Both the position numbers and the translations under genes were made by a program. A stretch of 64,000 nt of DNA, taken from Spirochaetota bacterium. GTDB taxonomy: Bacteria; Spirochaetota; UBA4802; UBA5550. The DNA lies in assembly GCA_050298055.1 (NCBI GenBank), contig JBNKTL010000017.1, positions 26,306-90,305 of the forward strand, in the 5' to 3' direction. Positions 9,145 through 37,782 of this stretch are shown here, one piece after another. The notes below the pieces were generated by a model. That model was not told the DNA's origin. It searched no databases and saw only the letters and a list, made by a program, of their open reading frames with translations. Positions within the stretch are counted from its first letter, which is position 1; the number at the start of each line of letters is the position of its first letter.

Positions 9145-9241
9145 AGTGCTTGTTGAAATGTTCCTTTTTTCTCATATCTGAAACCATAGAGTGAACTTTC
9201 TCAAGTCAGGTATCTGTGTCGAGGAGTGGTCTACCGGGTAA

Positions 9242-11248: not shown

Positions 11249-11255
11249 CAGGTAG

Positions 11256-17505: not shown

Positions 17506-17530
17506 ATGTACTCCTTTTCTATAAAATAAT

Positions 17531-17573
17531 ACTGATATCTCCCCGCCGCCGAAGGCGGCGGGGAGATATCAGT
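17531..17573. repeat. Perfect 20-bp-stem hairpin, the core of the MITE-like family; possible mRNA stabiliser or attenuator between cobC and cobT
   Basis: ACTGATATCTCCCCGCCGCC-GAA-GGCGGCGGGGAGATATCAGT. Confidence 0.8.
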
Positions 17574-17578
17574 TACAC

Positions 17579-18199: not shown

Positions 18200-18288
18200 T
18201 CCCCCTTAAAAGTTCCCCCTAACCCCCTCAGGGGGCACAAGAGGTTTTTGGGTTAATATCTTTCGCCCCCTCTGGGGGATGGGGGGCC
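18200..18288. repeat. REP-like palindrome
   Basis: CCCCCTAACCCCCTCAGGGGGC...GCCCCCTCTGGGGGATGGGGGG inverted arrangement. Confidence 0.5.
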
Positions 18289-19666: not shown

Positions 19667-19747
19667 GGATTTATCTTTTTAATTATCGGAAAGATTTAAT
19701 AGATGGTACAATAGAGTGTAATAAAATCAAATAATGATACTCTTCAT

Positions 19748-20359
19748 TTATTTCAGATTCAATTTTTCAGCAACTGCTTTACTCATGCGATTAGCTATAA
19801 TATGCTCGCAATAATTAAAATTAAATATTTTATCCATATCCAGTACAAGGTATTCAAAGCTATAACCGTCAGGAGCATCAATGAGAACAGGAGCTGGAAT
19901 TATATTGCATTCTTGCATCTTTTTTGCTACTGCTGGTTTTAAGAGACCTTCTGCAGCGGCAAGAAAAATAAGATGGTTAATGTCGCCCTGTTTTCCGTCA
20001 TAGTCGTCACCTTCTTTATAAAACTCCTGAAATAATTTAAATACAGTTTTGGCAGCAGATGTAAACTTGGTAGATTTGCAGTTATTGTAATCAAATATAC
20101 TGTAGTATTCCCAATCAGCCGGACTGTATCGTAAATCATTGTCAGTTACAAAAGTTTCCTGGTTGACATAGTCTTTATCCTGACGAAAAGAAATTGCAAA
20201 ATATTCCTGATAGGTTGATGGTATAATGTCTAAAGAAACTGCATCAATATATTCATTTAATGATTTTATTTCATCTTTATGTATTTCAAATAAATCCAAA
20301 ATCCCATCTTCAATGATTGGAATTAATTGCGAAATTTTATGTGGTAATTTAATTTTCAT
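19748..20359 (-). CDS. Hypothetical protein, DUF4303-like
   Basis: LRYSPADWEY motif; AT-rich gene. Confidence 0.5.
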   Translation of the reverse strand: MKIKLPHKISQLIPIIEDGILDLFEIHKDEIKSLNEYIDAVSLDIIPSTYQEYFAISFRQDKDYVNQETFVTDNDLRYSPADWEYYSIFDYNNCKSTKFTSAAKTVFKLFQEFYKEGDDYDGKQGDINHLIFLAAAEGLLKPAVAKKMQECNIIPAPVLIDAPDGYSFEYLVLDMDKIFNFNYCEHIIANRMSKAVAEKLNLK

Positions 20360-20503
20360 AGATTCCTTGCAATATATCAGAAGTCTTGATCTGACACTAT
20401 TGTTGCCGTTTTATAGAGTCAAGTGAATTATTGTTCGAGTCAGAGGTGCATGTTTGGACGTAAAACCACTTGAGTAGCCTGCCCGCCGCAGGCGAATCTC
20501 ATG

Positions 20504-21391
20504 TCACTGTTTATCAAGGATTTTCCCTTCAAGGGAAATAGTTTTTTTCCCCTGTGTATATCTTTTAAATACCATCTGTTTTTTATATGTATTGATAATA
20601 AAAAAGGGATCCCCGTCATCAATCGAATAATCACCGCCTGTTATTTCCCATGAACCATCCTTCTTATTAATTATTTTGCAGTTAAAAGCACCATCACCCA
20701 GCCAGCCGTAAATTCTGCTGTTTTTATAAAACAACCTTGCCCTGCAGAGATACTGGTTCTTTTCTTTCCTGAGCCATCCCACATCCAGGTCGCAGAATTG
20801 ATCTGAAAAGCTTTTGGGAAATCCCGAACTTCGGATTATGTGAACTTTATAATCAGCGTGTTTCAGAACCGGGTTCCAGTCCGCCATGAACCAGGCAAAG
20901 ACTCCAATCAAGAGAAATAAAAACAATGACAGCTGCCACATCCTCACAGGCCCTGTAATTTTTTTGTTATGACGGGGTGATTTAATATTTATGAGAGTAA
21001 TTATTGCAAAAGCTGCTGCGCATCCTGAACCTGAAATAATAAACAGCAGGGCAGGCCTGTAGCTGTTTCGCTCCAGAAGAATCTGCGGTAAAAAATATAT
21101 GAGGCTGAAAAAAAGAAGAAACCCTATGAGAAGATATACCAGTATGGGATAAAAATCATTATTAAAGTCAATCTCCGGTCCCTTCTTAAAGGGCGATACA
21201 GGCTGCATATTAAAAAGGATAATTGTGGAGTTGCCTGTGATGAAAGCGGTAAAAACCGATAAAACAACAGGAATGTAGATATCTCCTTTTGCGTAAAACA
21301 CAAAATAGAAAGATATCCCTGCTGAAACGATAAAAAGGAGGATTAAAACAGCCCTTAAAGTTAAGGTAATATTTTTTCTTTTTTCCATCAC
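20504..21391 (-). CDS. Hypothetical membrane protein (about 5 TMs plus a soluble C-terminal domain)
   Basis: Hydrophobic segments in the N-terminal 170 aa. Confidence 0.7.
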   Translation of the reverse strand: MMEKRKNITLTLRAVLILLFIVSAGISFYFVFYAKGDIYIPVVLSVFTAFITGNSTIILFNMQPVSPFKKGPEIDFNNDFYPILVYLLIGFLLFFSLIYFLPQILLERNSYRPALLFIISGSGCAAAFAIITLINIKSPRHNKKITGPVRMWQLSLFLFLLIGVFAWFMADWNPVLKHADYKVHIIRSSGFPKSFSDQFCDLDVGWLRKEKNQYLCRARLFYKNSRIYGWLGDGAFNCKIINKKDGSWEITGGDYSIDDGDPFFIINTYKKQMVFKRYTQGKKTISLEGKILDKQ

Positions 21392-21485
21392 GCTCTATAC
21401 ACTACATTTTGTAAATTCTCTTAAATTAATCAAGCATTCTTCCTGTTCAAGTCATGTGAAAATTAATGTCGGCCGGTTGCTGTTA

Positions 21486-22001
21486 TTATAAAAGAAGTTT
21501 CCACTGGGAAAATGGTAACCACCTTGAGACGTTTTTACTGTAATCTTCCCATTCCCGGCCGAACTGTTCCTTTAAATAAGGCTCTTCGTATTTTATCACT
21601 CTCAAGTGGAATGATATGAAAAGGATAATATCATAGAAAAAAAGAAACGGTGAGAAAAAGTATACGCACCAGCCAAAAACAGTGACAAGAACCCCTGTAT
21701 ACATGGGGTTGCGTACATACCGGTAAAGACCTGAAATGATTAATCTTTTCGGCGGGTCCCAGGGCGCCAGGGTGCCTTTCCCGGTTATGAGGAAGTCACG
21801 AACGCACCATAACAGAATAACAGCGCCAACAAACAGTATGATTATCCCGGGAGTCAGATGACGGCCCTTCCAGGGGTCAAAACGGGCGATCAACGGGGGA
21901 AGCAACAGGGCAAAGATCCCGGGAAGTGAAACAAAGGCGATCAATGCCCTGATGAATATGTGAGATTCTGGATTCGATTTATTATTACCGGAATATTTCA
22001 C
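21486..22001 (-). CDS. Isoprenylcysteine carboxylmethyltransferase / PEMT family membrane methyltransferase
   Basis: GKGTLAPWDPP, GLYRYVRNPMY, YEEPYLKEQFG. Confidence 0.9.
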   Translation of the reverse strand: MKYSGNNKSNPESHIFIRALIAFVSLPGIFALLLPPLIARFDPWKGRHLTPGIIILFVGAVILLWCVRDFLITGKGTLAPWDPPKRLIISGLYRYVRNPMYTGVLVTVFGWCVYFFSPFLFFYDIILFISFHLRVIKYEEPYLKEQFGREWEDYSKNVSRWLPFSQWKLLL

Positions 22002-22019
22002 TGGGTATATTCGCTCTAT

Positions 22020-22721
22020 TCAAAGATTTTTTTGGGAAGAAAAAATTTTAATTTCATTATATCTGTTTAAGGACAGATCATAGTATTCGACCAATGATAT
22101 TGTGTTAACAGAATAATCAAATTTTCTATTGTTAATAATCCATTGATTCAAATATAAACTGGCATTGTTTTTTGCTTTTTCTGTAATTCTTTTAAAATCT
22201 ATAAAATGACCCAGAACAACAGTACAGGTAAACAACCTGTTACCGTCAATTGTACCCTCTTTTATCATTGCTCCAAGTCCCTTTAAAAAAATTCTCATGT
22301 ACGGTATAGCCCTCTCATTTATTAATACAATCTGTGTTGTTCCTGCTGAGCTGCTCTCAATACTTTTAAATGTTAATGAGAAACCATCATTGAGATAAAG
22401 GGATAAAAACCGGTCTAGTAATTTATAGTCACTGTCTAACCATGAACTTCTGTGCATTTTTAATCTCAATTGGTCATTAACAATATCTGTATAGGGCAGT
22501 TCTTTTGAAAGGATTGTTGAGTGATGGTTCTCCTGATTTTGAAAACAATCACCAAATATTTCTTTTAAACCCAAAGATAACTCATTAAATTTATTTTTAT
22601 ATTCGGGAAAATATTTCCAGTCAACTATAAAGCTTTGACCATAGACATCAGTAGATTTATTATACTTAGTCTTTTGGCAAGCTTCTTCATTTAGCGAGTT
22701 ATAAAATTTATTTTCACTCAT
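22020..22721 (-). CDS. Hypothetical protein, possible 2H-phosphoesterase fold
   Basis: HHSTIL (HxT) and a degenerate second motif CTVVLGHF; C-terminal ISLVEY strand; AT-rich. Confidence 0.45.
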   Translation of the reverse strand: MSENKFYNSLNEEACQKTKYNKSTDVYGQSFIVDWKYFPEYKNKFNELSLGLKEIFGDCFQNQENHHSTILSKELPYTDIVNDQLRLKMHRSSWLDSDYKLLDRFLSLYLNDGFSLTFKSIESSSAGTTQIVLINERAIPYMRIFLKGLGAMIKEGTIDGNRLFTCTVVLGHFIDFKRITEKAKNNASLYLNQWIINNRKFDYSVNTISLVEYYDLSLNRYNEIKIFSSQKNL

Positions 22722-22983
22722 AAAGTTTGTTTAAAAAAACAATATTTTCCTTTCATTTATTATAACAATATAAAGATCCCGTCAAATTAAAAATATCAAA
22801 AAAAAGTATTATATCAGGCTGGAATAATTATTCCTATAACCAGATATTATTAATAATAAATATATATTGTTAATATCCCGCATCTTTTAGAGTCCAATTT
22901 AGAATTTTTAAAATTATGTTTGATTTTTTATCTATTATATTTTCGCATTAATTAAAATAACAGGTAAATAATTATAAATTCCT

Positions 22984-23973
22984 ATGCTATACTCGAAAAC
23001 ACCGGAAAAACTACTGAGGATACCAATCAGTAATAAATGTAATTATGAGTGCACTTTTTGCTGTTGGAACCATAAACCGTTCAATCCTATTAAACTCCTT
23101 AATCCCAATGATTACAATATACTGGTTCAGGCTGCAAATATGACAGGTTGTACCCGGATAATGCTTACAGGGGGCGAACCACTTCAAGTCACCAGTAATA
23201 ATACTAAAGAACTTTTTGATATTATTAAATCTATTTCTTCAGTTAAAGGTTTGACCGACTTCTGGCTGCTTACAAATGGCTTTTATCTTAATTCAAGTAA
23301 GTTAATCAGTGATCTAAAACAGGCGGGATTAAAAAAAGTTGTTGTTTCCATCGGAGCTGAATCAAATAAGAAATATAAAGAGTATTCGCAAACAGAATAT
23401 GATCTTGATACAATCCTTAATAATATTACCCTGGCCATCAGGGGTGGTATGCATTTAAAGGTTGATGTACCACTCTCCAGGAGTGGAATAAAAAATTATG
23501 ATGAACTCTTGGTCCTTATTAAAAAACTGGAATATCTTGGTGTACCGGAAGTAGCCTATTTTAAACTTCATAAAACAGCCGAAAACATAGAGGTTTACGA
23601 TTCATTATTCGTTGATGTCGAGAGTATTACTGAAGCTTTCAATGAGAGTGAATTATGGGATCTGAATGAAGATGAGGGGAAACTGAGTTTTTCAAATGGG
23701 AAAATCAGTGTTATTATACCGGCGGCAATAGAGTATAGAACCACCAATTGCGATGAAAACAGTTGTGGGCCCTATTGTCAGGGAATATATGCTGCCTATC
23801 TGGTGTCAGAAGAAGACAAGACTTTTATCAGGGCTTGTCACCATGAATTTAAGGATAAAAGGAATGAATATATAATCGGGAACTGCAAAGGCCTTTTTGC
23901 AAAAGAAAAGATCATAAAAATATTTCGAGATGTCTGGATATATGCATATGGCGAAAATGATATTATTCTTTGA
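22984..23973 (+). CDS. Radical SAM protein, MoaA-like but divergent
   Basis: LRIPISNKCNYECTFC (CxxxCxxC), LTGGEP, LTNG; C-terminal cysteine cluster C-x4-C-x3-C...C. Confidence 0.9.
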   Translation: MLYSKTPEKLLRIPISNKCNYECTFCCWNHKPFNPIKLLNPNDYNILVQAANMTGCTRIMLTGGEPLQVTSNNTKELFDIIKSISSVKGLTDFWLLTNGFYLNSSKLISDLKQAGLKKVVVSIGAESNKKYKEYSQTEYDLDTILNNITLAIRGGMHLKVDVPLSRSGIKNYDELLVLIKKLEYLGVPEVAYFKLHKTAENIEVYDSLFVDVESITEAFNESELWDLNEDEGKLSFSNGKISVIIPAAIEYRTTNCDENSCGPYCQGIYAAYLVSEEDKTFIRACHHEFKDKRNEYIIGNCKGLFAKEKIIKIFRDVWIYAYGENDIIL

Positions 23974-24751
23974 CCTGGATGATACCCTCATTGAGAATGC
24001 AAAATATTTTGATACTGTCAAAAACAATGTCGCAGAGGAATGCCGGAAAAAGGGAATAGAAAAATCAATCAATGAATTAAAACTCTATTTTGATGAGATT
24101 GAGAATAAAAACCATAAGAAATATGGAAAAGGGAAGGATAATTTTAGAAGGTCTTTAAAAGAGGCATGCAGGACATTTGCGAATATCTCAGTTGGAACTC
24201 TCATTGATGAACAGGTCGATTGGCTTGAGAGCAACCTCTTTACACCGATTTACGGGGTCGGAGAGACACTTGAGGCCTTATCAGAATATTTCCCGATACT
24301 CTGTGTTACTCATGGGAACCCGCAAGAACAGATAAATAAGATAGAACGGTCTCACTTGAGCAGGTTTTTCAATTTTAAAGATAAATCTTTAGTGATACTG
24401 GAAAACAAAAGCAGAGAGCAATACTCAAATCTTCTTGAAAGTTTAACGTATGATCCGGAATATGCAGTTATGGTAGGCAACAGTCCGAAAAAAGATATTA
24501 ACCCTGCAAAAGAAGCAGGAATGATAACGGTATTTATACCGAGTAAACACACCTGGCACATGGATGATGAAGATATATCCGGAGGAGATCCTCCAACACT
24601 GGTTGCTTTTTCCATAACTGACCTGAAAGATCTTTTTATGCCCTCTTTCAATTTAAATAAAGGAAATAGATGTATTTCATATAACAGCACGGAAAAAAAG
24701 ATTAGATACAAAGACACAAGCGGCAGAGATAGTACTTTTATAATTCAATAA
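23948..24751 (+). CDS. HAD-superfamily hydrolase
   Basis: FDLDDTL motif I, VTHG motif II, K, and MVGNSPKKDI motif IV. Confidence 0.92.
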   Translation: MAKMILFFDLDDTLIENAKYFDTVKNNVAEECRKKGIEKSINELKLYFDEIENKNHKKYGKGKDNFRRSLKEACRTFANISVGTLIDEQVDWLESNLFTPIYGVGETLEALSEYFPILCVTHGNPQEQINKIERSHLSRFFNFKDKSLVILENKSREQYSNLLESLTYDPEYAVMVGNSPKKDINPAKEAGMITVFIPSKHTWHMDDEDISGGDPPTLVAFSITDLKDLFMPSFNLNKGNRCISYNSTEKKIRYKDTSGRDSTFIIQ

Positions 24752-24769
24752 CCTTAGAAAAAGAATTAC

Positions 24770-25384
24770 ATGATGAGAAAAGTTCTTATCATTACCGGTG
24801 GTAAAAATCCCGGCCATCCGATAGAAGCTCGAAATATTGAGATCTTTCAGGATATCTATGGTGATACTACTGAAATATCATCAATTGACCTCTCTGAGCT
24901 TTCAGTGAGAAAACTTGATGAGTATAATAATTTTATTTTTTTCACATCCCTTGAAGGTGCAAATAACCAGATGCTTAATCATATTTTAGACAGGTCAGGC
25001 AAGCATTCCTGGTGCATGGTTTTTCTCCATGAGGCTGCAATTTTTAACAGGGACAACCATGCATTTTACCGATTCCTGGGGGTCCGGTTCAAGGAGCACT
25101 ATGAATACGGCTCCTTTACGGTCAAGACAGAACGTTGTCCTGTTACAGAAGGTATTGGTGAAAAATTTATTATTGATGACGAATTATACTTTTTTGAAAA
25201 GCCGCTTAATGGTTCCGGTTCTTTTGTTTTCTGTTTTTCAGAAAAGAATGCTCCCCTGGGATTCATAAAAAATGAACAGCCAGGAGGAACATTGATCTAT
25301 ATCGCCCTTGGCCACAATAGAGGGGCATTTACGAACAGAGAGTACAGGCGGATGCTGAAAAATTGTGCCGGCTATTTCATATGA
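24770..25384 (+). CDS. ThuA-like (class I GATase-like fold) protein
   Basis: FLGVRFKEH, PVTEGI..F..DDELYF, YIALGH pattern. Confidence 0.75.
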   Translation: MMRKVLIITGGKNPGHPIEARNIEIFQDIYGDTTEISSIDLSELSVRKLDEYNNFIFFTSLEGANNQMLNHILDRSGKHSWCMVFLHEAAIFNRDNHAFYRFLGVRFKEHYEYGSFTVKTERCPVTEGIGEKFIIDDELYFFEKPLNGSGSFVFCFSEKNAPLGFIKNEQPGGTLIYIALGHNRGAFTNREYRRMLKNCAGYFI

Positions 25385-25401
25385 TTAATATTGGAGGGGA
25401 T

Positions 25402-28400
25402 ATGGGCAAGTATATTAAGGACAGCAGGATTCTGGATGAAGAGGATAAAAAAACAATATTGATTTTTGATGCCGACGATACGTTATGGGAAAGTTCAAAA
25501 CATTGGCGTGATATAAAAATTGATATTGCCCATGAAATCATCAATGTGCTTTTCAAAAACAAAAACAAAATCGTTATGGATTATTTAGATTTGGCAAAAG
25601 AAAAACTTAAGGAGAACAGTGAAGAATTAAAAATTGATTTAAAAGATTATCTTAGGAAACATGAATTAAAAAGTTTTAAAAATAGTATAAAGGAGAAAAT
25701 CCTCATTGATAGAATACAATTATACATTCAACAAGATGATAAAACCGAATATATAAAAGAGTTTATCGTGTCACTTGAAAAACTTGTAATAGATAAGTAT
25801 GATAAGGATTCTTTTAAGATACTCATTGAACTCTTTATAATATATTTCAATTTCAGGGAGGAAAAAAATCATAGCAACAAAGCACGCGGCATCGATAATT
25901 TCAGAACAGTGTTGTTAGAAATTGTCAAAGAATTATTTGATGAAAATGATGAAATAATATGGATTGAATCTTATGTAAATAAAAAAATTCATGAGCTTGA
26001 GTCTATTAGATATACAGCAAAGGACGGTGTGAGATCAGCTCTTTCAATTTTAAAAAAAACACATCACCTTGCGATATTGTCCCAGGGAAGCCCCTATGAG
26101 ATTAATTCAAAATTGAAGACGAGCGGACTCAATGTTTTTTTCGATAATAATAATATAGTTTTAGATTTTAATAAAAATAGTGATTTCAAAGAGTTAAAAA
26201 ATGAAATTCCTCACACTAAAGAAATCTTCTATATTGGGAACAGCCTTAAAAATGATATATTACCGGCATTTAAAGCTGGATTTCGAACCATTTTTTATCC
26301 CAACAGCAACACATGGATAAATGATGATGTTGTCGATAATGAAAATTTTACAGATATCAAAACCTACCTCATACGAACTCCCATGGAGATTATGAGCATT
26401 GTAAATATTAAAAACGAAGAAAAGCTAAAGAAATTGCTAAAATATGATTCTCATACAAAAACAATCAAATACCTGGAAAACGGTAAAACCAATGAAATTA
26501 CCATTTATAATTTCTGCACCCAGAAGGGCTTAATTTTCTGTATTGGCGATTTTATCCATGAAATGTTCGTAATACCCAAAAGTATAGCATATGAATCGGT
26601 GCGCCGCCACTCTGAAATTCACAGGGGTACTGAAAACGATATTTTACCGATTCAGCAGTATGGGGGGGCAATGCTCAGTCAGAGTTTATTAAATGTTTTA
26701 AATACCGGTGAAAACGAATATATTGTTAAATCACCGCCCTGTATTGACGTCAACCAGGCTGAAAGGCTTTATCCGTGGCAGACAGGAACAGTAATAGACA
26801 AAGAGAATAAAGACAGGCTCTACAACCAGCAGATATTCTATCTGAAGAAAAATCAATTTAATGATAACCTTATAGAAAACGGATCAACTTTTCGTGTCGA
26901 AACGCTGCTTACAAGGACATATGCTGAAGATATATATGCCAGGTTGTATAAGTGTATAAAAAACCATAACGACAAAGGAAAACTTGAAACAAAATTATCT
27001 GATTTTTTTGATAATGAGTCATCAATGAACAGCATTCTTAATAAATGCAATAATGATCTATGCATTCATAGTTGTGAGAGAAATTCAGCAGAACATAATA
27101 AAAACGGTTTAATTGAAAAGCTGTCAAGAGAACTTTCAGATAGGTCAGAGGGAAAAACCCAAGATGGTATTCTCTTTAACATATTTAAAAAGAACTTCAG
27201 TTGCTACCATTATAAAAATTGTGATGACCAATTAGAAGATATTTCTTCTCTGTACAGTAATAATGAAAATAGTTACCTGGTAATTGATTATTTTTCGGAT
27301 CAAAATAGAAATAAAAATAAAGATAACATCGCAATCAAAAAATTATTTGAGAATAAAGAGATTAATAATTTTAATACAATTTTCATTAAATGCAACGATC
27401 CCATTGAAGCAATTACTTTGAGTTATAAAATTGATAACATCTGGATAATCGGCAATATAACAAACCTCTTTAATAAATCAGGTACACATTATTATTCATG
27501 GGAAGCGCTTATTGAAGCAGTAATCAAAGAGCTTGAGACATATGAAAATGGATCAATTATTAAAGTAGAAAATTGCTTCAATCTTGTTCTTCTCTGTAAA
27601 AATGAAGGATGCATATATATTGAAAAGAAAAGAAATGAAAATACATTTCATATGCATACCTTTATTGATCCATTCAATCAATACGGCACATTCTCTGCCA
27701 GTAATTATGGATGGGTTGCCGGATTTCAGAATATATTCATCACTAAATTTGTCCATTCATTTGTCTCAGAAAAGTCAATCGATCATGTTAACAGTGTCGG
27801 GGATGCCTGGAAATATGCCAGGGCTGTTTTTCTCCTTGGTTACGGTTCAATAGAATTGATAGAGAATAATGAAATAGATAAAATACCCTCACTAATACCG
27901 GTTGCGGAAAACTTGAAGACAGTGAAAGAGATCATGACCAAATGCGATGAGGAATTAACCGACTTTGAAAAAAAATTCAGAGACTATGTTCAAGATGTTC
28001 TCCAGTATAGTGTCAATGTGGACATGAAAAGAGATGATCAAATGTTCCAACAAGAAGGAAATGAAGGTAAAGTGTACCATTATTCTAAAAACTTTTCATT
28101 ACTCTGTAAATACCGGCTTTCCTTAAAGCAGGCGTTTATTATCTCTGAAAAGATCATTGAATTAGGCCCCGATGCATTAAATAATGATATATATTTTGAA
28201 CCTGGGAAGGAACCAGATAAGAAGATTAGTTTCAGGATACCTTTTTTAAAAATCGGCAACCATATATCGATATTCAGAAAAGAAATCGAAGAGGTAAACC
28301 TGATATATACTGTTATACGCGATTATGTAAAAAGAAAAACAACAAAGCGTCCGCTTTCTATCGCGGTCTTTGGTGAGCCCGGTTCAGGGAAATCGTTTAC

Positions 28401-29280
28401 TGTTACCCAGATTGTAAAAAACCTGCAGGGGGTCAAAAGCGAGATCCTTGAATTTAACCTTTCCCAGATGTATTCACTCAATGACCTTATGGAAGCCTTT
28501 CACCTGATCCAGGATGCCGGACAGCGTGACAGGCTCCCCGTTGTTTTCTGGGACGAATTTGACTGTGAATTCAACGAAAATATCTTCGGGTGGCTTAAAA
28601 ACTTTTTAGCGCCCATGCAGGACGGTATGTACCTGAAGGACGGCAAAGACCACTATTTCGGCCAGGCAATTTTTATTTTTGCCGGTGGCATATGTTCAAA
28701 TGATATTGTCTTTAAAGCTCTTAGGGTTGCAAAACAAGACGTTAATAAATATCTTGCTGATACATATCAAGATATTGATGGAGAGATACTAGAACAATAT
28801 GCCCGTGAAGCAACTTCAATTTTAAAAGACATAAATTCTACGAAGATCAAAACCCTGAAATTACCGGATTTTATCAGCCGGCTAAAGCTCACCTATACGG
28901 TCCCGACAAGTAGGATTAGTGATTTAAACAAAAAAATTTTTAACACAAGTGAAAATATTAATGATACAAAACTGGAGGGCAAGGAAGCTGCAATTATCTT
29001 TCGCAGGGCAAGTCTCATCAGAAACCAACTGGCAAGCCATGCCGGACACCTCAAGACTATGGACTTTAAGGCCTTTCATCGACTGTTGCTCTCAGATAGA
29101 TATGCATGTGCCCGTGATCTTGAAAGCGCCATTGAGGCAAGCACCCTGGCAGACGTGGAAAACTTCGGACTCAGCGCCCTTCCATTGTCTCAGGAAAGTG
29201 ACAATGAAATTAAGTTAAACAAATTAGTAATAGACTATGGTAAAAAAGAGATTACTTTGAACAACCTTAACCGGACCTGA
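25402..29280 (+). CDS. Large fusion protein: HAD phosphatase + degenerate PfkB-like region + ClpB-D2-type AAA+ ATPase
   Basis: RBS GGAGGG; FDADDTLW and YIGNSLKNDI (HAD); IGDF and YGGAML (PfkB-like); GEPGSGKS, VVFWDEFD, LAPMQDG, PDFISRL, ARDLE (AAA+). Confidence 0.85.
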   Translation: MGKYIKDSRILDEEDKKTILIFDADDTLWESSKHWRDIKIDIAHEIINVLFKNKNKIVMDYLDLAKEKLKENSEELKIDLKDYLRKHELKSFKNSIKEKILIDRIQLYIQQDDKTEYIKEFIVSLEKLVIDKYDKDSFKILIELFIIYFNFREEKNHSNKARGIDNFRTVLLEIVKELFDENDEIIWIESYVNKKIHELESIRYTAKDGVRSALSILKKTHHLAILSQGSPYEINSKLKTSGLNVFFDNNNIVLDFNKNSDFKELKNEIPHTKEIFYIGNSLKNDILPAFKAGFRTIFYPNSNTWINDDVVDNENFTDIKTYLIRTPMEIMSIVNIKNEEKLKKLLKYDSHTKTIKYLENGKTNEITIYNFCTQKGLIFCIGDFIHEMFVIPKSIAYESVRRHSEIHRGTENDILPIQQYGGAMLSQSLLNVLNTGENEYIVKSPPCIDVNQAERLYPWQTGTVIDKENKDRLYNQQIFYLKKNQFNDNLIENGSTFRVETLLTRTYAEDIYARLYKCIKNHNDKGKLETKLSDFFDNESSMNSILNKCNNDLCIHSCERNSAEHNKNGLIEKLSRELSDRSEGKTQDGILFNIFKKNFSCYHYKNCDDQLEDISSLYSNNENSYLVIDYFSDQNRNKNKDNIAIKKLFENKEINNFNTIFIKCNDPIEAITLSYKIDNIWIIGNITNLFNKSGTHYYSWEALIEAVIKELETYENGSIIKVENCFNLVLLCKNEGCIYIEKKRNENTFHMHTFIDPFNQYGTFSASNYGWVAGFQNIFITKFVHSFVSEKSIDHVNSVGDAWKYARAVFLLGYGSIELIENNEIDKIPSLIPVAENLKTVKEIMTKCDEELTDFEKKFRDYVQDVLQYSVNVDMKRDDQMFQQEGNEGKVYHYSKNFSLLCKYRLSLKQAFIISEKIIELGPDALNNDIYFEPGKEPDKKISFRIPFLKIGNHISIFRKEIEEVNLIYTVIRDYVKRKTTKRPLSIAVFGEPGSGKSFTVTQIVKNLQGVKSEILEFNLSQMYSLNDLMEAFHLIQDAGQRDRLPVVFWDEFDCEFNENIFGWLKNFLAPMQDGMYLKDGKDHYFGQAIFIFAGGICSNDIVFKALRVAKQDVNKYLADTYQDIDGEILEQYAREATSILKDINSTKIKTLKLPDFISRLKLTYTVPTSRISDLNKKIFNTSENINDTKLEGKEAAIIFRRASLIRNQLASHAGHLKTMDFKAFHRLLLSDRYACARDLESAIEASTLADVENFGLSALPLSQESDNEIKLNKLVIDYGKKEITLNNLNRT

Positions 29281-29461
29281 CAGTGTAAATGATCCGCGGG
29301 AAGAGCCATCCCCGACTGCGCGGTTCCTGGACCGATACTGTCATAAAACCGGTTTTATCTATGAGGCCCGACATATCTTTTTTTTCAGCCGGGAGTGAAA
29401 AAGCCGGGAAGCTGGTTTTCAATTTATCGAATGTTTTATGAATCTTAGCGTTGAATTTATA

Positions 29462-29490
29462 TTGACAGTTATTTTTTAGGAACCTAACAT
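29462..29490 (+). promoter_or_regulatory. Sigma70-type promoter
   Basis: TTGACA-17 nt-TAACAT. Confidence 0.5.
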
Positions 29491-29496
29491 GGAGAT

Positions 29497-30402
29497 GTGA
29501 TGTGGCATATCTCTTCTCTGACTGCGTTTTTAATTATCATAACACTTGTTCCTGTGAGTGGCGCGGAACCGGCTGCTCACAGAAGCACGCAGAAGCAGGT
29601 TGAAGCTGCCGGAAGCCTGCTGAAGATCATTTCCCTTGTTCCCGGAGAAGGGAAGCCTGTAAGCGGCAGGTCGATGCTGAAGGCAGAGGTTTCGGTTGAT
29701 ATCCCCGGATTTACACCGGATGATCAGTACCTGCTTCGGGTCTACATGAGGAGTATGAAAAAGGGACAGCCGGGGAAGTACTTTGTGGACACCTATGATA
29801 TTACGTCACGTAAAAATCATATGTACATCATTGTTCCCATTAACAAAGTCCTGGGAGGTTTCGGGAAGGGTGAGGTGGGTGTGGACTTTTCAGTGGCCCG
29901 GAAAAAGAGGGGCCTTTACGCACCGCTGCATATTATGACAACGGTTACAAAAAAGTATATAAACACCGGGGAGGGGATCTCCCCGGAAAGCCGGAGAATC
30001 AACTGGGAGAGAAGAACGGATTCTTTAGACACGGGGAATGATTCCTTCGGCAATATCGAACCTGTTGTCATGAAGATCCGGGACCTGAATAAAACTGCCG
30101 GTTCAACCATCCAGCCCGGCGGGGAGATCACCGGAACCGTGGATTACCGTATACCCGGGTATTCAGGGACCCGGCGGTACATCATCTACCTCTATGAGAT
30201 CACAGGCGGCAATTACCGTCTGGTCAAAAAATTCCGCATACCTTCGGGAAGCGGCAGCATTCCCTTCAGCTATACCTCTCCTTCCGGGGGAAGAGGTGAC
30301 GGGGATTTAACCATCAGGTTCGTGGTGAACAGGTACTCACGGATGGGCTTTCTCCCCGTCTTTACCTGTGATGCCGTCCGGTATAGGACCGGGAAGCATT
30401 AG
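29497..30402 (+). CDS. Exported hypothetical protein with two tandem beta-rich domains
   Basis: Signal peptide; internal repeat (KIISL..G.....V..DIPGF...Y.L / KIRDL..G.....VDYRIPGY...Y.I). Confidence 0.65.
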   Translation: MMWHISSLTAFLIIITLVPVSGAEPAAHRSTQKQVEAAGSLLKIISLVPGEGKPVSGRSMLKAEVSVDIPGFTPDDQYLLRVYMRSMKKGQPGKYFVDTYDITSRKNHMYIIVPINKVLGGFGKGEVGVDFSVARKKRGLYAPLHIMTTVTKKYINTGEGISPESRRINWERRTDSLDTGNDSFGNIEPVVMKIRDLNKTAGSTIQPGGEITGTVDYRIPGYSGTRRYIIYLYEITGGNYRLVKKFRIPSGSGSIPFSYTSPSGGRGDGDLTIRFVVNRYSRMGFLPVFTCDAVRYRTGKH

Positions 30403-30831
30403 TCTGCCGGCGGCTCCCGGAGGGAGGTGCATACCGGGCCGGGGACTGCTCCCGTATCCCGGCATTGTTTTTTTACCTCTGTAAAATTCTTCTTTTTCAA
30501 CCGCGCATCGTCAAAATGGGCTCTTCCCGTAAGCTTAATGGGATGATGCTCTCTCTCCGGTTTAATTAAAGTGAAGCCGGTAAAGTCCCGTATAGTCACG
30601 GCTCTATATATACTTGTTGACAGAAGGAATACCGGATATATACTGCCTGGAGAATCAGCGAACATTTTATTATTACAATTATCGGTACAATTTATTTGTA
30701 TTTTGCCTTCCTGAGGTAACTGTCTGGAATAAGTTACCAATCATTTGAGTAAAAATTAAATTTGTAAGCCCTCTGAATATTGTTTTCTCTCAATAAGCCG
30801 TTTATGTCATGAACAGTAAAATTGCATATAA

Positions 30832-31980
30832 ATGAATATACTTCAGATAGCCACACTGAACCGGCCCATTAAGCAGGACCTGGGTTACGGCCCTATTGAA
30901 GCGGTTATTTATAACATTGATAAAGGTCTGCATAAATTGGGTCACCGTTCTCTTGTTGCCTGTTCCGGTGATTCAAAAGTTTTCGGAGAACAATACTCCA
31001 CCATAGAGAAGAGTTTCAGTGAATACCACAGTACAAATACCCGGGAACAGCGGAAAAATATGCGCAGGCATCTTCTCCTCTCCCTTGAAAGGGCGAAAAA
31101 GTGTGATATTGATATCATCCATATACATGACGCCGCCATGGTTGAATATATTTTTAACGGAGTTGTTAAAAGTCCTGTTCCCATTGTGATGACACTCCAT
31201 GTGCCTGCAAAAGACAAAGGGCCATTCAGGCTGTGGAATGAGTCGCTTATTTCCACTTCCCGGGTGTTTTTTGTCCCGATCAGTGAATACCAGAAAAAAC
31301 AACACAATGGATTAATGAACATTCAGAATGTTATCCACCACGGTATTGATGTGGAGGACTATCCCTTTAAATCTGGCTCCGGTAAACAGGAATATCTGTT
31401 CTCCATCGGAAGGATCACAAAGGATAAAGGGCAGGATATCGCAATCGAGATCGCGAAAAAAACCGGCAACCGGCTCATCATTGCCGGTAATGTTCAGAAC
31501 AAAAAAAAAGACAGGGCATTCTTCAACAGTATCATAGAATCAATCGACCTTGTGACTGATCTGCCTGAACCCTGTGACGATAACGACTATTATGAAAAGA
31601 TCATGAAACCGATTCTGGATTCGGATCACCAGATCATCTATATCGGAGAAGTCAATACCGCCCGGAAAATGCTCTGGTACATGCATGCAAAGGCGACGCT
31701 TTTTCCCATACAATGGGGAGAACCCTTCGGGCTTGTGCTGATCGAATCAATGGCCTCCGGTACGCCGGTTGTGGCCTTCAATAAAGGCTCGGTGCCTGAA
31801 ATTGTTATTCATGAAAAAACCGGTTTTGTGGTAGATTCAATAGATGAAATGGTCAATGCGGTGAGTGAGATCGGTATTATCAAACACCATGACTGCCGAA
31901 GTCACATTAAAGAGAATTTTTCAATTTTAAGTATGGCTGAAAAATATTCAGAGCTGTATCAATCTGTTATGGAGAAGTAA
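30832..31980 (+). CDS. Glycosyltransferase family 4
   Basis: YGPIE, GRITKDKG, EPFGLVLIESMASGTPVV. Confidence 0.93.
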   Translation: MNILQIATLNRPIKQDLGYGPIEAVIYNIDKGLHKLGHRSLVACSGDSKVFGEQYSTIEKSFSEYHSTNTREQRKNMRRHLLLSLERAKKCDIDIIHIHDAAMVEYIFNGVVKSPVPIVMTLHVPAKDKGPFRLWNESLISTSRVFFVPISEYQKKQHNGLMNIQNVIHHGIDVEDYPFKSGSGKQEYLFSIGRITKDKGQDIAIEIAKKTGNRLIIAGNVQNKKKDRAFFNSIIESIDLVTDLPEPCDDNDYYEKIMKPILDSDHQIIYIGEVNTARKMLWYMHAKATLFPIQWGEPFGLVLIESMASGTPVVAFNKGSVPEIVIHEKTGFVVDSIDEMVNAVSEIGIIKHHDCRSHIKENFSILSMAEKYSELYQSVMEK

Positions 31981-31985
31981 AATTA

Positions 31986-33947
31986 ATGCCCAGAGATATC
32001 CCTGTCAGTAACGGTTCTTTCCTTTTGAATTTTGATCCGGATTACCAGATCAGAGATGTTTATTATCCTTTTATCGGACAGGAAAACCATTCCAGCGGGA
32101 ATCCTTTTCTCTTTGGGGTATGGGTGGATGGGAAGTATTCGCGCATGGGACCGGAGTGGGAAAAAGATCTGCGATACCGGGATAACAGTCTTATAACAAA
32201 CGTTTATCTCAAAAATGACGATCTGGGCCTGACAATTCGATGCTCCGATGTTGTGGATATGGATTTAAACATCTACATCAAAAAAATCGAAGTTACCAAC
32301 CTTGAAGGGAAGAACCGACAGGTCCGGCTTTTTTTCAGTCATGAATTTAATCTCTATGGGAATGATATCGGAGGCACAGCTTATTTTGATCCCCGGAGCT
32401 GTTCAATCATCCATTATAAAGTCAACCGGTATTTTCTTATAAGCTGCTGGGCCCATGACCAGTGGGGAATGAAACATTTTTCCTGCGGGAGAAGAAATGC
32501 TTCGGGTAGTTTAGAGACCATTAAAGAGACGGAGGAGGGAAAACTCAGCGGGAATCCTTCCGCATGGGGTTCGCCTCATTCCACTATCGGCATCTGGCTG
32601 GATTTGACAGGCGGGGGAACAGAAACCACCTATTACTGGATAGCGGCGGGGAAGACCTATTCCCAGGTGGCAGATCTCAACATGGCGGTCCACAAGATCA
32701 CCCCGGAAGAACTTCTCATCCGCTCATCAAAATACTGGAAGACATGGGTGCAGGAAACCTCCCAGGATTTTCATAATCTTCCCCGATCGGTCACTGAAGT
32801 TTATAAACGAAGCCTGCTTATATTGAGAACACAAATTGACAATCGCGGCGCCATAATTGCAGCCAATGATTCGGATATTATCCGTTTTGGAAAGGATACC
32901 TATTCGTATATGTGGGGACGGGACGGGGCTTTTGTTGCCGCCGCCCTGGCAAAGGCCGGTTACTCCCATGTCTGTATGAAGTATTTTAATTTTTGCGCCC
33001 GTATTTTATCCAGTGACGGGTACCTGTTTCAGCATTATAATCCCGACGGATCCCTTGCCAGTAACTGGCATCCCTGGCTTGTGGATGGGAACGAGGTCCT
33101 TCCTATCCAGGAAGATTCCACCGCTCTGACCCTGTGGGCACTCTGGATACACTACCGGAGCCTGAAGGATGTTGAATTCATCAAACCTCTCTACCGCACA
33201 CTCATCATAAAGGCCGCTGATTTCTTAGTAAGTTACCGGGACCCTCAAACCCTGCTGCCTTTACCCTCCTATGATCTCTGGGAGGAACGCTATGAACTGC
33301 ACACCTATACCGCCGCGACAGTGGTCGCGGGGCTCAGGGCTGCAGCTCATTTTTCAGAACTCTTTCAGGATACCTCACTGGCAGATAAGTATAACAGGGC
33401 GGCTGATGAAATAACAGCAGGGATTGAACAATACCTTTATCATAAGGGGCTTAAACGCTTTGCCCGTTCAGGTTCCCGGACAGACGGCGGGTATAAGCTG
33501 GATGAAGTCATTGATATCAGTCTTTTAAGCCTGGCGACTCTGGGAGTTCTGGATCCCGGAGATACGAAAATGATTGAAACGGCAGATGCCGTACATGAGA
33601 ACCTGTGGCTGAAAACCCCGACGGGAGGTTGCGCCCGGTACCAGGGAGATCTCTACCAGCGTACGGAAGACAGCCCCGGGGAGATTCCCGGGAACCCGTG
33701 GTTTATAGCTACACTCTGGCTGGCCGAATATTATATTGACCGGGCTGAGAACCGGCAACAGCTCCACGCTGCTGTTCCTTATCTTGAATGGTGTGTAAAA
33801 AATGCCCTCCCTTCGGGAGTGCTGGCCGAGCAGGTGCACCCTCTGAACGGTTCTCCACTCTGTGTTTCTCCTCTCACCTGGAGCCATTCCGCCTTTGCCT
33901 GGACAGTTCTGCGTTACATTGAAAAGATCAGGGGGTTTGAGGTTTAA
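31986..33947 (+). CDS. Glycoside hydrolase family 15 (glucoamylase/trehalase-like)
   Basis: YSYMWGRDG, QEDST, DLWEE, LAEQV, PLTWSHS. Confidence 0.93.
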   Translation: MPRDIPVSNGSFLLNFDPDYQIRDVYYPFIGQENHSSGNPFLFGVWVDGKYSRMGPEWEKDLRYRDNSLITNVYLKNDDLGLTIRCSDVVDMDLNIYIKKIEVTNLEGKNRQVRLFFSHEFNLYGNDIGGTAYFDPRSCSIIHYKVNRYFLISCWAHDQWGMKHFSCGRRNASGSLETIKETEEGKLSGNPSAWGSPHSTIGIWLDLTGGGTETTYYWIAAGKTYSQVADLNMAVHKITPEELLIRSSKYWKTWVQETSQDFHNLPRSVTEVYKRSLLILRTQIDNRGAIIAANDSDIIRFGKDTYSYMWGRDGAFVAAALAKAGYSHVCMKYFNFCARILSSDGYLFQHYNPDGSLASNWHPWLVDGNEVLPIQEDSTALTLWALWIHYRSLKDVEFIKPLYRTLIIKAADFLVSYRDPQTLLPLPSYDLWEERYELHTYTAATVVAGLRAAAHFSELFQDTSLADKYNRAADEITAGIEQYLYHKGLKRFARSGSRTDGGYKLDEVIDISLLSLATLGVLDPGDTKMIETADAVHENLWLKTPTGGCARYQGDLYQRTEDSPGEIPGNPWFIATLWLAEYYIDRAENRQQLHAAVPYLEWCVKNALPSGVLAEQVHPLNGSPLCVSPLTWSHSAFAWTVLRYIEKIRGFEV

Positions 33948-33995
33948 CAACCCGGTGGCGGCTAAAAAACAGGGCAGGGAGAAGAATTTCCTCCA

Positions 33996-35918
33996 TTATT
34001 CCGAGTACATACGGGCAATGGTATTTTTGTAATTGTCCAAAATAACTTTTCTTTTTACTTTAAGAGTTGGTGTCATCTCACCTGTTTCTTCAGTAAATTT
34101 TTTCGATAAAACAGTATATTTTTTCACCTGTTCAAAATCAGATAATTCCCTGTTTACTTTTTGGATATCTTCATCAATAAGAGCCTTTATTTTTTTGTCT
34201 GCGATCAGCTCTTCACCGACTTTAATGCAGAGGGGGGCGGGGCCGTCATAATTATATTCAAGGGCCTTTTTGTCATACTCAATCCCATTGGTATCACAAT
34301 AAGCGATAAGTTCGTTAAAGTCAGGGACAACAAGGGCGGAAACATATTTTTTATCATCGCCAACAGGAAAACAGATATCAATCCATTTGCTCAGAGAGAA
34401 AAGTGACTCAATGCGGGCAGAGGCTACATTTTTCCCCGTGTCAAGAACCATGATGCCTTTTTTCCGATCAATGATGCGGATAAATCCTTCAGCCACTTCC
34501 TCCACAATATCACCGGTTTTAAAAAAGCCGTCCTCTGTAAAGGCTTCCCCGGTTGCTTCTTCATTGTTCCAATAGCCAAGAAAGAGATTTTCTCCCCGGA
34601 CAAGCCATTCACCGTCATCAGCGATTTTTCCCTCAACACAGTCAGGAAGCATTCCAACTGAGCCGGGAAGAATTTTTCCCTCTCTGTTAAGGTTAATGGT
34701 GTTCCATGTCTCTGTGAGCCCGTAGCCCTCCATGATGATAATGCCCATTGCCAGAAAGGCTTTACACAGATCAGCGGGAAGAGAGCCCGCGGCAGAAAAG
34801 GCCCCGCGGAAACGGCCTCCAAAGCGGTCCCGCACCCGGGAAAAGACCAGACGGTCATAGAGACGATAGCGCAACTTAAGAAAAATGCCGGCCTTTTCAG
34901 TAATGTCCCTGTTCTCTTCTATTGGCAGAATACCATGTTCACCTGCAATTGTTTCCATGACCTGGAGCCCTGTTTTCATTGCCCGGTTAAATATTGCCGT
35001 TTTCACAGGTGATGCGGAGGCCATTGCCCGCATTGCCATATAGATTCTCTCATAGATTCTTGGTACAGATACGAATATGTGGGGCCTGAATATCTGCAGG
35101 TCCTGTACAATGGTCTTTGGTGTTGAATATGCGATTGTTGAGACTGACATCATGGCGCAGCCATGGCCGCATTCCCGTTCATAAGTATGAGAAAGCGGGA
35201 GGAAAGAGAGGAAAACATTTTCTTCAGGGAAAGCAGGGGCTATTTTCAGGTCACGGCATATGGCGGTATTGAACCCAAGATGGCTGTGCATGGCGCCTTT
35301 TGGTATGCCGGTGGTCCCGGATGTGTAAACAATGGTCATGAGGTCTGTGATTTCTACGGACCGCCACCGCTTTTCAAAGCAGCTCCGGTCTGACGCAAGT
35401 CTGTGGACCCCCAGTTCTCTCAACTGTTTTATACTCATGACACGATTGTCACTGGTTTCAAAATCATCGTTAAAAAGAACAACCTTCTCTAACCCCGGTA
35501 TCTGGTCCCAGACATTTATGATCTTTTTCAGCTGTTCATTTCCCTGAACATAGAGAATCTTTGATCCGGAATCCTTTAATATATAAGCTGTTTCATTTTC
35601 AGTCAGGGTGGGATAGATGCATACGGTGACTCCTGCAGCGGATAGAATGGAATAGTCTGCGTGTACCCATTGTGGGCAGGTATGCGCCATAACGGCTGCC
35701 CGGTCACCTTTTTCAAAACCCAGCTCCATGAGGCCGGCTGACAGCTCTTTAACTATCCGCCAGACTTCCGCGTATGTCAATGATTCCAGTGAACCATCTT
35801 CATTTTGCCACCACTGAAATCTCCTCTGGCCGAAACGAACCGCGTTACGGTTTAAAAGTGCCGGAGCTGTCAATTCCTCAATATACCATTTGTCAGTTGC
35901 TTTCGTCATTTCAATCAC
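33996..35918 (-). CDS. Long-chain fatty acid--CoA ligase
   Basis: YTSGTTGIPKG, EGYGLTET, FKTGDI. Confidence 0.93.
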   Translation of the reverse strand: MIEMTKATDKWYIEELTAPALLNRNAVRFGQRRFQWWQNEDGSLESLTYAEVWRIVKELSAGLMELGFEKGDRAAVMAHTCPQWVHADYSILSAAGVTVCIYPTLTENETAYILKDSGSKILYVQGNEQLKKIINVWDQIPGLEKVVLFNDDFETSDNRVMSIKQLRELGVHRLASDRSCFEKRWRSVEITDLMTIVYTSGTTGIPKGAMHSHLGFNTAICRDLKIAPAFPEENVFLSFLPLSHTYERECGHGCAMMSVSTIAYSTPKTIVQDLQIFRPHIFVSVPRIYERIYMAMRAMASASPVKTAIFNRAMKTGLQVMETIAGEHGILPIEENRDITEKAGIFLKLRYRLYDRLVFSRVRDRFGGRFRGAFSAAGSLPADLCKAFLAMGIIIMEGYGLTETWNTINLNREGKILPGSVGMLPDCVEGKIADDGEWLVRGENLFLGYWNNEEATGEAFTEDGFFKTGDIVEEVAEGFIRIIDRKKGIMVLDTGKNVASARIESLFSLSKWIDICFPVGDDKKYVSALVVPDFNELIAYCDTNGIEYDKKALEYNYDGPAPLCIKVGEELIADKKIKALIDEDIQKVNRELSDFEQVKKYTVLSKKFTEETGEMTPTLKVKRKVILDNYKNTIARMYSE

Positions 35919-36236
35919 CCCGGGTCATGTTTTTTCTTCTTTAATAGAAAAATCTATTTTATAAACTTTTAAGCACAATATATGCATATATATTTTAATA
36001 TACATTTGTCAACAGAATAAATATTTATTTCTCACCAATTGTCTGGTGAAAATTTGCTATCCATTGTAAAAAAAAGTATCAAAGGGTATCTCATGAGATA
36101 CCCGGTATCGGTTACCACACTTTTTATCATTCCTTGATAAGCAAAAATCTTTCTTAAAAAAACTTGCAAAAATTGCTTTTTGATGCCGTAAATAAACCAT
36201 ATATGAATTGAATCATCAGAACCAGGGATTGACAAT

Positions 36237-36563
36237 ATGAATCGTTTAGAAGCAAAAAAATGGATTTTGAAAAAGTGCGGCGAGGGCTGGCTGGGTCTTA
36301 TAGATGAAGTCTATGATAATCTTCCCCGGGGGATAGAAATTACACAGGTATATCAGAAGTATGCCGGTTTGCGTGTGGATATCAATCCTGAATCCGAATC
36401 ATTTGAAGATTTTCTTGCGGATATCGAAGAGAGAAGTTATTCCCTGTGTGAAATCTGCGGTAAAGAGGCAAGCCAGTACGAAATCAACGAGTGGGAATAT
36501 ACCCGGTGTACGGACCATTGTGAAAATGGAGTCGACCTCAATGATTTATTTGAAAAGGATTAG
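36237..36563 (+). CDS. Small hypothetical protein of a phage-common family with a Zn-binding C-terminus
   Basis: GEGW..LI, QVYQKYAGLR, CEICG...TRC..H. Confidence 0.7.
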   Translation: MNRLEAKKWILKKCGEGWLGLIDEVYDNLPRGIEITQVYQKYAGLRVDINPESESFEDFLADIEERSYSLCEICGKEASQYEINEWEYTRCTDHCENGVDLNDLFEKD

Positions 36564-36637
36564 TATGACGTTAAAAATTTTAAGAACTTTCTGTTATCAA
36601 GGTATAAGGATGTACGAGATTGTTAAAGTAAAGATAA

Positions 36638-37606: not shown

Positions 37607-37782
37607 AAAATATTAATACAAAATTCTTCCAACCGTCATGGAGGGTTGTAATTAAGTTTTTAAGGCATTGTACTTAACGTCTCCGGATTAAGTACATTCT
37701 TCCCTGACCAGGCCCAGGTCAAATATGTCAGTGCGAATTGCCCGGGACTGCGGGCACAATAGCAACAGGTTAAAACCTGCGG

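Follow-up and report, generated by a model that had tools for sequence, protein, structure and literature searches.

We analysed a 64,000-nucleotide stretch of contig JBNKTL010000017.1 from a Spirochaetota bacterium (the window; host assembly of 4.7 Mb), centring on five neighbouring genes at positions 22020-29280, here named gA to gE. These genes appear to belong to a composite, horizontally acquired island in which a rare candidate conflict module, predicted to modify nucleotides, lies beside a separate sensor-ATPase, a reading to which we give a probability of roughly one half. The island is part of an 18-kb insertion and would hold at least two independent modules with a nucleotide/ribose-phosphate theme. 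The first would comprise the radical S-adenosylmethionine (SAM) enzyme gB and gD, the ThuA-like protein that constantly accompanies it, with the HAD phosphatase gC inserted between them, and the second the multidomain ATPase gE. Nucleotide-rewriting radical SAM enzymes are one of the few immune chemistries common to bacteria and animals, with the viperins as the known example and Ophion as a recent one. The gB family is rare and deeply separate from MoaA, and its members either come with a ThuA-like partner or carry a defence-type SIR2 domain as a fusion; it offers a testable candidate for such chemistry. The features are:

22984..23973, plus strand: gB, radical SAM enzyme of 329 amino acids (aa) from a rare MoaA-related family (Pfam, NCBIfam, structure matches, alignments)
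23930..24751, plus strand: gC, HAD-IA phosphatase of 273 aa, CTE7/YjjG-like but below the model cutoffs
24770..25384, plus strand: gD, ThuA-like, class I glutamine-amidotransferase-like protein of 204 aa (Pfam ThuA)
25363..29280, plus strand: gE, fusion of HAD, PfkB-fold and AAA+ domains, 1305 aa when read from a TTG start (Pfam, model, motifs)
22020..22721, minus strand: gA, 2H-phosphoesterase-fold protein of 233 aa, 29.8% guanine-cytosine (GC) content (AlphaFold2 (AF2) model and Foldseek)
22722..22983, no strand: divergent intergenic region between gA and gB, 18.7% GC
19667..37782, no strand: inserted segment of 18.1 kb, splitting the cobU-cbiJ junction relative to two relatives

The conserved unit is the radical SAM/ThuA-like pair only. 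Scanning one genome per species for gB yielded 24 loci, and in four of these the orthologue is full length: L050 (Desulfobacteraceae), L051 (a 'Deltaproteobacteria' metagenome-assembled genome, MAG), L052 (a Methanosarcinales MAG) and L053 (Desulfatiglandales). ThuA-like orthologues with 30-40% identity to gD adjoin the radical SAM gene in all three loci with enough flank (L050, L052 and L053), as well as in the window; the ThuA-like domain of L052 forms a fusion protein with an additional radical SAM/SPASM enzyme. The fourth locus, L051, ends 179 nucleotides (nt) past the radical SAM gene; a gene of the ThuA subfamily was detected in the three other orthologue genomes and not in this MAG, which carries a SIR2 fusion and whose completeness is not reported. 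gC sits between the radical SAM and ThuA-like genes, which directly adjoin in the other loci, and no HAD protein matching gC or the N-terminus of gE was found within 10 kb of the pair in any of the four. An earlier reading of the window made from its letters alone (the sequence-only reading) had proposed one five-gene system, which this co-occurrence test splits: the two-gene core survives, being syntenic in the window and in 3/3 loci, and the five-gene system fails, since neither the gA family nor the PfkB-like/AAA+ core of gE was found in any of the four genomes with a radical SAM orthologue, nor a matching HAD gene in any of the four loci.

Both partners have recognisable relatives from which they nevertheless stand apart. 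gD matches the ThuA family (PF06283) over its full length (60 bits against a cutoff of 33.4, positions 1-206 of 209), yet it belongs to a subfamily of its own that is always beside or fused to radical SAM enzymes and is marked by the invariant motifs GGKNPGH, TSLE, HEA, GVRF, DE.Y and GH. According to the Pfam description, the proteins after which ThuA is named have a link to the use of trehalose; near gD there is no thuB-type oxidoreductase or sugar transporter. A literature search on ThuA with radical SAM, judged from titles and abstract openings, returned no relevant paper, and one on ThuA, ThuB and 3-ketotrehalose none that describes the family. The intervening gC is a HAD protein with the motif I sequence FDLDDTL (DxDxT) and a HAD_2 score of 46.4 bits. 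Against the YjjG and CTE7 nucleotidase models, whose cutoffs are 160-170 bits, gC scores 83.5 and 40.6 bits and gE 34.6 and 21.7 bits.

gB carries the radical SAM motif CX3CX2C at C19/C23/C26 and matches PF04055 at 48.8 bits (cutoff 29.5). Its best NCBIfam matches are MoaA models, both below their equivalog cutoffs (TIGR02666, 89.9 versus 284 bits; TIGR02668, 91.4 versus 325 bits), and its best solved match is MoaA of S. aureus (95 bits, positions 7-185 only), followed by BlsE and the viperins. MoaA, the GTP 3',8-cyclase, has a second, C-terminal Fe-S cluster. With it gB shares the N-terminal radical SAM core, the CX3CX2C motif and conserved C-terminal cysteines possibly holding such a second cluster; the conserved residues in this part of gB are C256, C261, C265 and C285-H286. 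In contrast, the C-terminal 140 residues of gB have no MoaA match, and Mob_synth_C (PF06463), present in the true MoaA matches of the same search, is absent from gB and its seven close homologues. Near gB there is no moaC or other molybdenum-cofactor gene. In a quick tree the gB family is split from three MoaA sequences by a long branch with a support of 100; SIR2-fused and ThuA-adjacent forms are interleaved, and L050 and one fused clade form a weak group (83) with gB. Nor is gB a viperin by the available models: NF038283 of NCBIfam gives 32.9 bits against a cutoff of 180, and the PADLOC pVip models give 37-39 bits from the generic radical SAM core, the best being 38.6 bits over profile positions 6-148 of 257. 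We also considered the HXS system, which in the available part of its source comprises HxsA, HxsB, HxsC plus HxsD (PMC13128918). This candidate was rejected, because gB scores 51.3 bits against the 268 bits set for HxsC and because the island holds neither a second radical SAM gene nor an HxS-repeat protein.

The family is rare wherever we looked for it. Seven close homologues at 39-45% identity were found in a collection of 5.8 billion clusters, and a profile of 12 members retrieved 36 representatives at E ≤ 1e-30 among 1.84 billion proteins. In a sample of the host phylum, two of 401 genomes match, one of them the seed genome. A metagenome scan with the radical SAM alignment gave 46 loci and no full-length orthologue, all matches being partial at 21-38% identity. 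Viral contigs gave three weak partial radical SAM matches only, and PHROGs generic radical SAM matches only.

From the relatives MoaA, BlsE and viperin, we infer that gB would use its SAM cluster, probably together with another Fe-S cluster in its C-terminal part, to take a hydrogen from the ribose of a nucleotide, which could be a nucleoside triphosphate (NTP) or a nucleotide of the nicotinamide adenine dinucleotide (NAD+)/ADP-ribose type. gD would complete or feed this reaction, and the HAD enzyme would trim a phosphate from the product or a by-product. Two questions offered by the family are which nucleotide is attacked and whether NAD+ is the feedstock.

A link to defence comes from the domains and genes that accompany the family. 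Seven of the 36 representatives are N-terminally extended, and six of these seven carry a SIR2_2 domain (29-36 bits, Pfam cutoff 24.5). The fused proteins of L051, P0163 and P0171 score best in PADLOC against PDC-S65 (79-93 bits) and the short-pAgo-associated SIR2 (78-102 bits), and for the N-terminus of the L051 protein both the Atlas features (0.90) and the structure (template modelling (TM) score 0.53-0.74) point to a SIR2-like domain. The likeness to defence SIR2 proteins, including short-pAgo SIR2, PDC-S65 and Thoeris ThsA, is thus carried by the fused sisters of gB, whereas the window gB itself has no SIR2 domain, and the fusions have a radical SAM domain where known systems have APAZ/pAgo, SLOG or other partners. 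Our literature searches found no description of a SIR2-radical SAM fusion. Matches to defence models lie within about 10 kb in three of the four contexts, namely the window, L052 and L053. In L053, mad7 (E 4e-31) and SspF (E 3e-33) lie 4.7-9.4 kb upstream of the pair; in L052, PDC-M05A/B, a nucleotidyltransferase/HEPN-like pair, lies about 220 bp downstream; and in the window a SoFic protein (381-aa Fic/DOC, 38912-40057, plus strand, E 4e-67, 34.0% GC) is encoded just past cbiJ. The stretch upstream of the pair in L053 (563-8126) reads mad7-like, SspF/DndF-like, then YaaC-like, a split DUF932 and a helix-turn-helix (HTH) gene, which has the look of a defence or mobile-element neighbourhood.

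Because the fused sisters carry an NAD+-cleaving SIR2 domain and the loci lie near defence genes, the pair is most likely, by analogy, a rare and undescribed conflict (anti-phage) module of the viperin/Ophion kind. The logic that the gB locus would share with pVip and Ophion is a nucleotide-directed radical SAM enzyme beside phosphoesterase or nucleotide enzymes in mobile, defence-associated loci. In contrast to both, the partners here are a ThuA-like protein and a HAD phosphatase instead of a kinase, a PHP or a phosphoribosyltransferase (PRTase), and the gB locus is known from its genes alone. Ophion, in the available part of its preprint, combines the radical SAM enzyme OpnA with a PHP phosphatase and a PRTase (bioRxiv 10.1101/2025.09.30.679545).

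The genes around the pair also bear on another explanation, in which the pair, instead of acting in defence, would be central to a rare pathway that makes or salvages a modified small molecule (a sugar, a nucleoside or something cofactor-like), and the surrounding enzymes do the tailoring. We consider this possible but somewhat doubtful. L050 has a CofD/MobA-like NTP-transferase fusion, a ROK protein, two unknown proteins and a 1247-aa protein with a C-terminal NUDIX domain, in which neither BLASTP (E > 1) nor a profile search found similarity to gE. The neighbours in L053 are an unknown protein, a PfkB, a ROK-like protein and a B12-radical SAM enzyme, and those in L052 three more radical SAM-type proteins and a xylose-isomerase-like TIM barrel. 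Four radical SAM-type genes stand in a row at 6225-12940 of L052, comprising a 442-aa CX3CX2C protein, a 504-aa radical SAM protein, the gB orthologue and the ThuA-radical SAM/SPASM fusion, with the TIM barrel among them. The link of ThuA proteins to trehalose use and the presence of BlsE, a nucleoside-antibiotic enzyme, among the nearest solved relatives of gB would suit a pathway of this type. The recurrent SIR2_2 fusions that score best against defence models are hard to reconcile with it, and the defence-model matches near three of four contexts speak in the same direction. Moreover, the accessory genes differ in each locus, with nothing conserved beyond the pair and no transporter or regulator conserved with it.

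In the composite island that we favour, the second module is gE, whose PfkB fold, probably a ligand sensor, would be joined to an intact AAA+ motor and to a swappable nucleotide domain, usually RyR, sometimes Ham1 or SLOG, and here HAD. In the database, gE is a protein of 1292 aa that begins at the ATG at 25402. Its N-terminal HAD domain (about residues 30-330) has the motif I sequence FDADDTL and matches PF00702 at 30.8 bits. The protein was modelled from residue 350 onward with a predicted local distance difference test (pLDDT) value of 70, including a low-confidence, low-complexity insert at about 450-623. Residues ~387-888 adopt a ribokinase/PfkB fold, aligning to pseudouridine kinase 7c1x with a VIA Z of 17.5 (root-mean-square deviation 5.0, 292 residues), and more than 30 further PfkB-family chains match model residues 38-539 at Z 13-17. 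Residues ~960-1290 form a Clp/NtrC-like AAA+ domain with intact Walker A (GEPGSGKS) and Walker B (VVFWDEFD) motifs, matching nucleotide-binding domain 2 of Skd3/ClpB and ClpA in Foldseek (E 2e-6) and ClpA in VIA (Z 15.5). PfkB kinases carry a GAGD motif that forms the catalytic base and anion hole. In the gE family, PF00294 was detected in 0 of 42 members (E ≤ 0.1), hhalign against three true PfkB proteins reached a probability of 0.24, and the consensus has no conserved Asp where the kinase base is expected. Judged from these sequences, the domain is probably a ligand-binding relic whose kinase residues have apparently been lost.

The gE family itself is large and widespread. Scored homologues number 283 across many phyla and include proteins of ~880 aa annotated as 'RyR domain-containing', in which the PfkB-like and AAA+ domains are followed by RyR repeats. 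The C-terminal 650 residues of gE align with these RyR-type proteins at 24-33% identity (E down to 1e-75), and among 42 aligned members RyR was detected in 31, AAA in 35 and PfkB in none. gE shares their fold and Walker motifs and differs in having an N-terminal HAD domain and no RyR; it is the only HAD-fused architecture among the 120 listed of the 283 scored matches. Its best match has an N-terminal Ham1 domain, which is inosine triphosphatase (ITPase)-like, and another member adds SLOG. The family is uncharacterised, and a literature search with the terms RyR domain, AAA+, ribokinase and bacterial defence ATPase found no description of it. In the available part of a 2026 preprint, phage RyR-domain proteins cleave or sequester 2'/3' cyclic ADP-ribose (2'/3'cADPR) immune signals (PMC13232231), so that the swappable domain may plausibly handle nucleotides. 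gE thus adds a data point to a big, unstudied AAA+ family with a putatively dead kinase, and since the end domains RyR, SLOG, Ham1 and HAD all act on or bind nucleotides, it lends more focus to the idea of a family that senses or clears nucleotide signals.

Searches nearer to the host and in mobile DNA found few relatives of gE. Its core occurs in one of 301 genomes sampled from the host phylum, the host itself; 40 relatives gave HAD-only matches at most, and a phage record collection gave no match to the core. Three relatives on plasmids have no neighbour in common, and next to them are genes for a transposase, an integrase or a giant SIR2 protein. The last is the case on a Methylobacterium plasmid (L093, 1-9398), where an RyR-type PfkB-like/AAA+ gene is ~1.3 kb from the gene for a very large 'SIR2 family protein' (5696-11944 of the record, cut at the locus edge), with a transposase and an HTH gene between them. 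Within the host genome, the only other match of gE is gC, which is paralogous to its N-terminus (30.5% identity over 167 aa, E 1.5e-17). By sequence comparison, this tie looks like a local HAD duplication that does not necessarily imply a common function, and the paralogous HAD domains appear to be the only tie of gE to the operon.

Several points weigh against a conflict module with an independent ATPase beside it. A number of the pair's neighbours in L050, L052 and L053 look biosynthetic instead of defensive, and the kinases, NUDIX, CofD and extra radical SAM genes near the pair fit a small-molecule pathway equally well, which makes that pathway a serious rival. The comparison context is four other loci only, one of which (L051) ends just past the gene, and the PDC models matched near L052 represent candidate systems only. 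SoFic falls outside the 18-kb insertion. PADLOC names no system for any island protein, as the sequence-only reading had expected of a novel system: PADLOC-DB 2.0, run on nine island and flank proteins, gave weak generic matches only (pVip, one 'Hydrolase' model, and mad8 at 16.6 bits). The gB tree comes from a quick, unfinished search with weak deep support, and the loss of the kinase motif in gE was read from the family consensus and the failed hhalign comparison, not from a residue-level structural alignment. Finally, the tight operon and the HAD duplication could mean that gE was recruited into the first module in the host lineage.

The divergent gene gA has no evident place in either module. 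It has no match in Pfam, NCBIfam, PADLOC or PHROG, and no Pfam family, 2H included, was reached even at E 10; ten homologues were found at 33-41% identity. The AF2 model, built on these ten homologues, has a pLDDT of 88.6, and its top Foldseek matches in the PDB are CPDase (the Appr>p cyclic phosphodiesterase), LigT, AKAP18 and Usb1 (E 1e-5, TM 0.5-0.6). All 19 listed matches at E ≤ 0.001 have the 2H fold (TM 0.4-0.6), and Atlas assigns gA to PF08975 at 0.94. 2H phosphoesterases have two H-x-T/S motifs that supply the two catalytic histidines. The first of these is invariant in the gA family alignment (NHHST, H67-S-T69), and the second position reads T165-C-T167 in 11 of 11 family sequences, which makes gA a one-histidine variant of the 2H fold. 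Compared with the known members (CPDase, LigT, the AKAP18 central domain, Usb1 and Atu0111/DUF1868), gA thus shares the overall fold and the first-strand H-x-T but differs in its second motif, in matching no Pfam 2H model and in reaching TM scores of only 0.4-0.6. It is a degenerate 2H-fold protein that lacks the second catalytic histidine and has no demonstrated link to either module. No relatives were found among viral contigs, and a search of the unknown neighbours and the fused proteins revealed no hidden homologue of gA or ThuA. On the same strand, 18 nt downstream of gA, a gene at 21486-22001 (minus strand) encodes a PEMT/ICMT-like membrane methyltransferase that matches phrog_26245 (function unknown; E 9e-17).

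The arrangement of the five genes invites the explanation that they form one integrated, lineage-specific system, in which the pair makes a modified nucleotide, the HAD and 2H proteins act on it or clear it, and gE, detecting it with its PfkB-like domain, fires its ATPase and HAD effector. gB, gC, gD and gE are co-oriented, and each overlaps the next or lies at most 18 nt from it: gB and gC overlap by 44 nt, gC and gD are separated by 18 nt, and gD and gE overlap by 22 nt (a gap of 17 nt if gE starts at its ATG). gA is divergent from them across 262 nt. All five genes have a GC content of 30-40%, and the stretch at 22020-29280 averages 34.0% against 45.1% over the remaining window. The gC/gE paralogy, with gC as the sole other genomic match of gE, the position of gE as the one HAD-fused member among the listed matches, and five domains that plausibly all handle ribose-phosphate compounds would fit an integrated system as well. 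However, a tight operon in an AT-rich island need not equal a conserved system. gA and the gE core were found in none of four genomes with the radical SAM orthologue and a matching HAD in none of four loci, the plasmid relatives of gE have no common neighbour, and the methyltransferase gene so close downstream of gA suggests that gA may belong to another transcription unit. We therefore judge integration of all five genes to be unlikely.

These comparisons also settle most of what the sequence-only reading had described. Its five genes, with their coordinates, spacing and low GC content, correspond to open reading frames in the window, and its domain calls (2H-like, radical SAM on a GTP-cyclase scaffold, HADs, ThuA-like, PfkB/AAA+) all agree with the Pfam and NCBIfam matches, the models and the Foldseek and VIA results. 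Its nucleotide/ribose-phosphate theme is reinforced by the MoaA, BlsE and viperin relatives of gB and by the SIR2-fused sisters. The circuit that it proposed, in which the radical SAM enzyme makes a nucleotide, HAD and 2H enzymes remove it and PfkB senses it, relies on local adjacency and the HAD duplication only, and the gE relatives on plasmids share no neighbour. Since gA, the gE core and the HAD were not found beside the pair elsewhere, such a circuit may exist in the host lineage and is not a conserved system. In its fullest form, the pair and its SIR2-radical SAM sisters would be a new antiviral family producing, by radical chemistry, a toxic or signalling nucleotide from NAD+/ADP-ribose-derived or NTP substrates, wired here to a dead-kinase AAA+ sensor whose RyR pocket was swapped for HAD and to a one-histidine 2H protein, completing a make-sense-clear circuit of a so far undescribed kind. 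That whole picture strikes us as improbable.

The five genes belong to a larger insertion, of which they form a part with a composition of its own. In G009 and G008, two genomes of the same family as the host, CbiJ comes immediately after CobT-CobC-CobS-CobU. The window has cobU at 19106-19666 and cbiJ at 37783-38529, so that an 18.1-kb segment splits the operon. A comparison with 25 relatives gave no real match to the DNA between 19.7 and 34 kb, only the cob genes being matched in them. No integrase, transposase, tRNA or bounding repeats of the insertion were found, the repeats there being short AT-rich matches of a chance-like kind. Among 568 sliding windows of 7.3 kb, the GC minimum (33.8%; mean 43.7%, standard deviation 4.1) starts at 21101 and overlaps the five-gene stretch almost fully. 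In the gA/gB intergenic region, promoter-like matches are at chance level (35 versus 32.5 expected), as is the terminator scan. A role in cobalamin metabolism, suggested by the cob genes on both sides, was rejected, because the segment is an insertion absent from relatives and no cob genes lie beside the pair elsewhere.

An insertion of this kind might also carry decaying, non-functional cargo, and the extreme AT-richness of the segment, its singleton status in the host's family, and the long low-complexity insert in gE would be in keeping with decay. Against it, all five reading frames are uninterrupted and run to the full length of their homologues, the catalytic motifs are intact (CX3CX2C, HAD DxDxT, Walker A and B), and the window copies keep the invariant residues of each family; we regard decay as highly improbable.

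The insertion holds more than gA-gE and the PEMT/ICMT-like methyltransferase. Three further proteins, of 203, 295 and 301 aa, are unknown, as is one of 322 aa from an AT-rich gene (29.8% GC); the segment also encodes an AMP-binding enzyme, a GT4 glycosyltransferase and a GH15 glucoamylase-like enzyme. The cob operon contains two intergenic repeats that look like repetitive extragenic palindromic (REP)-like dispersed repeats: one at 18215-18288 has at least ten more copies at 85-90% identity on other contigs of the host genome, and one at 17514-17584 also matches many sites in the relatives G004, G011, G012 and G013. Further along the window, ARAGORN detected a tRNA-Cys (GCA) at 56688-56777 (plus strand) that, at 90 nt, is unusually long for a class I tRNA.

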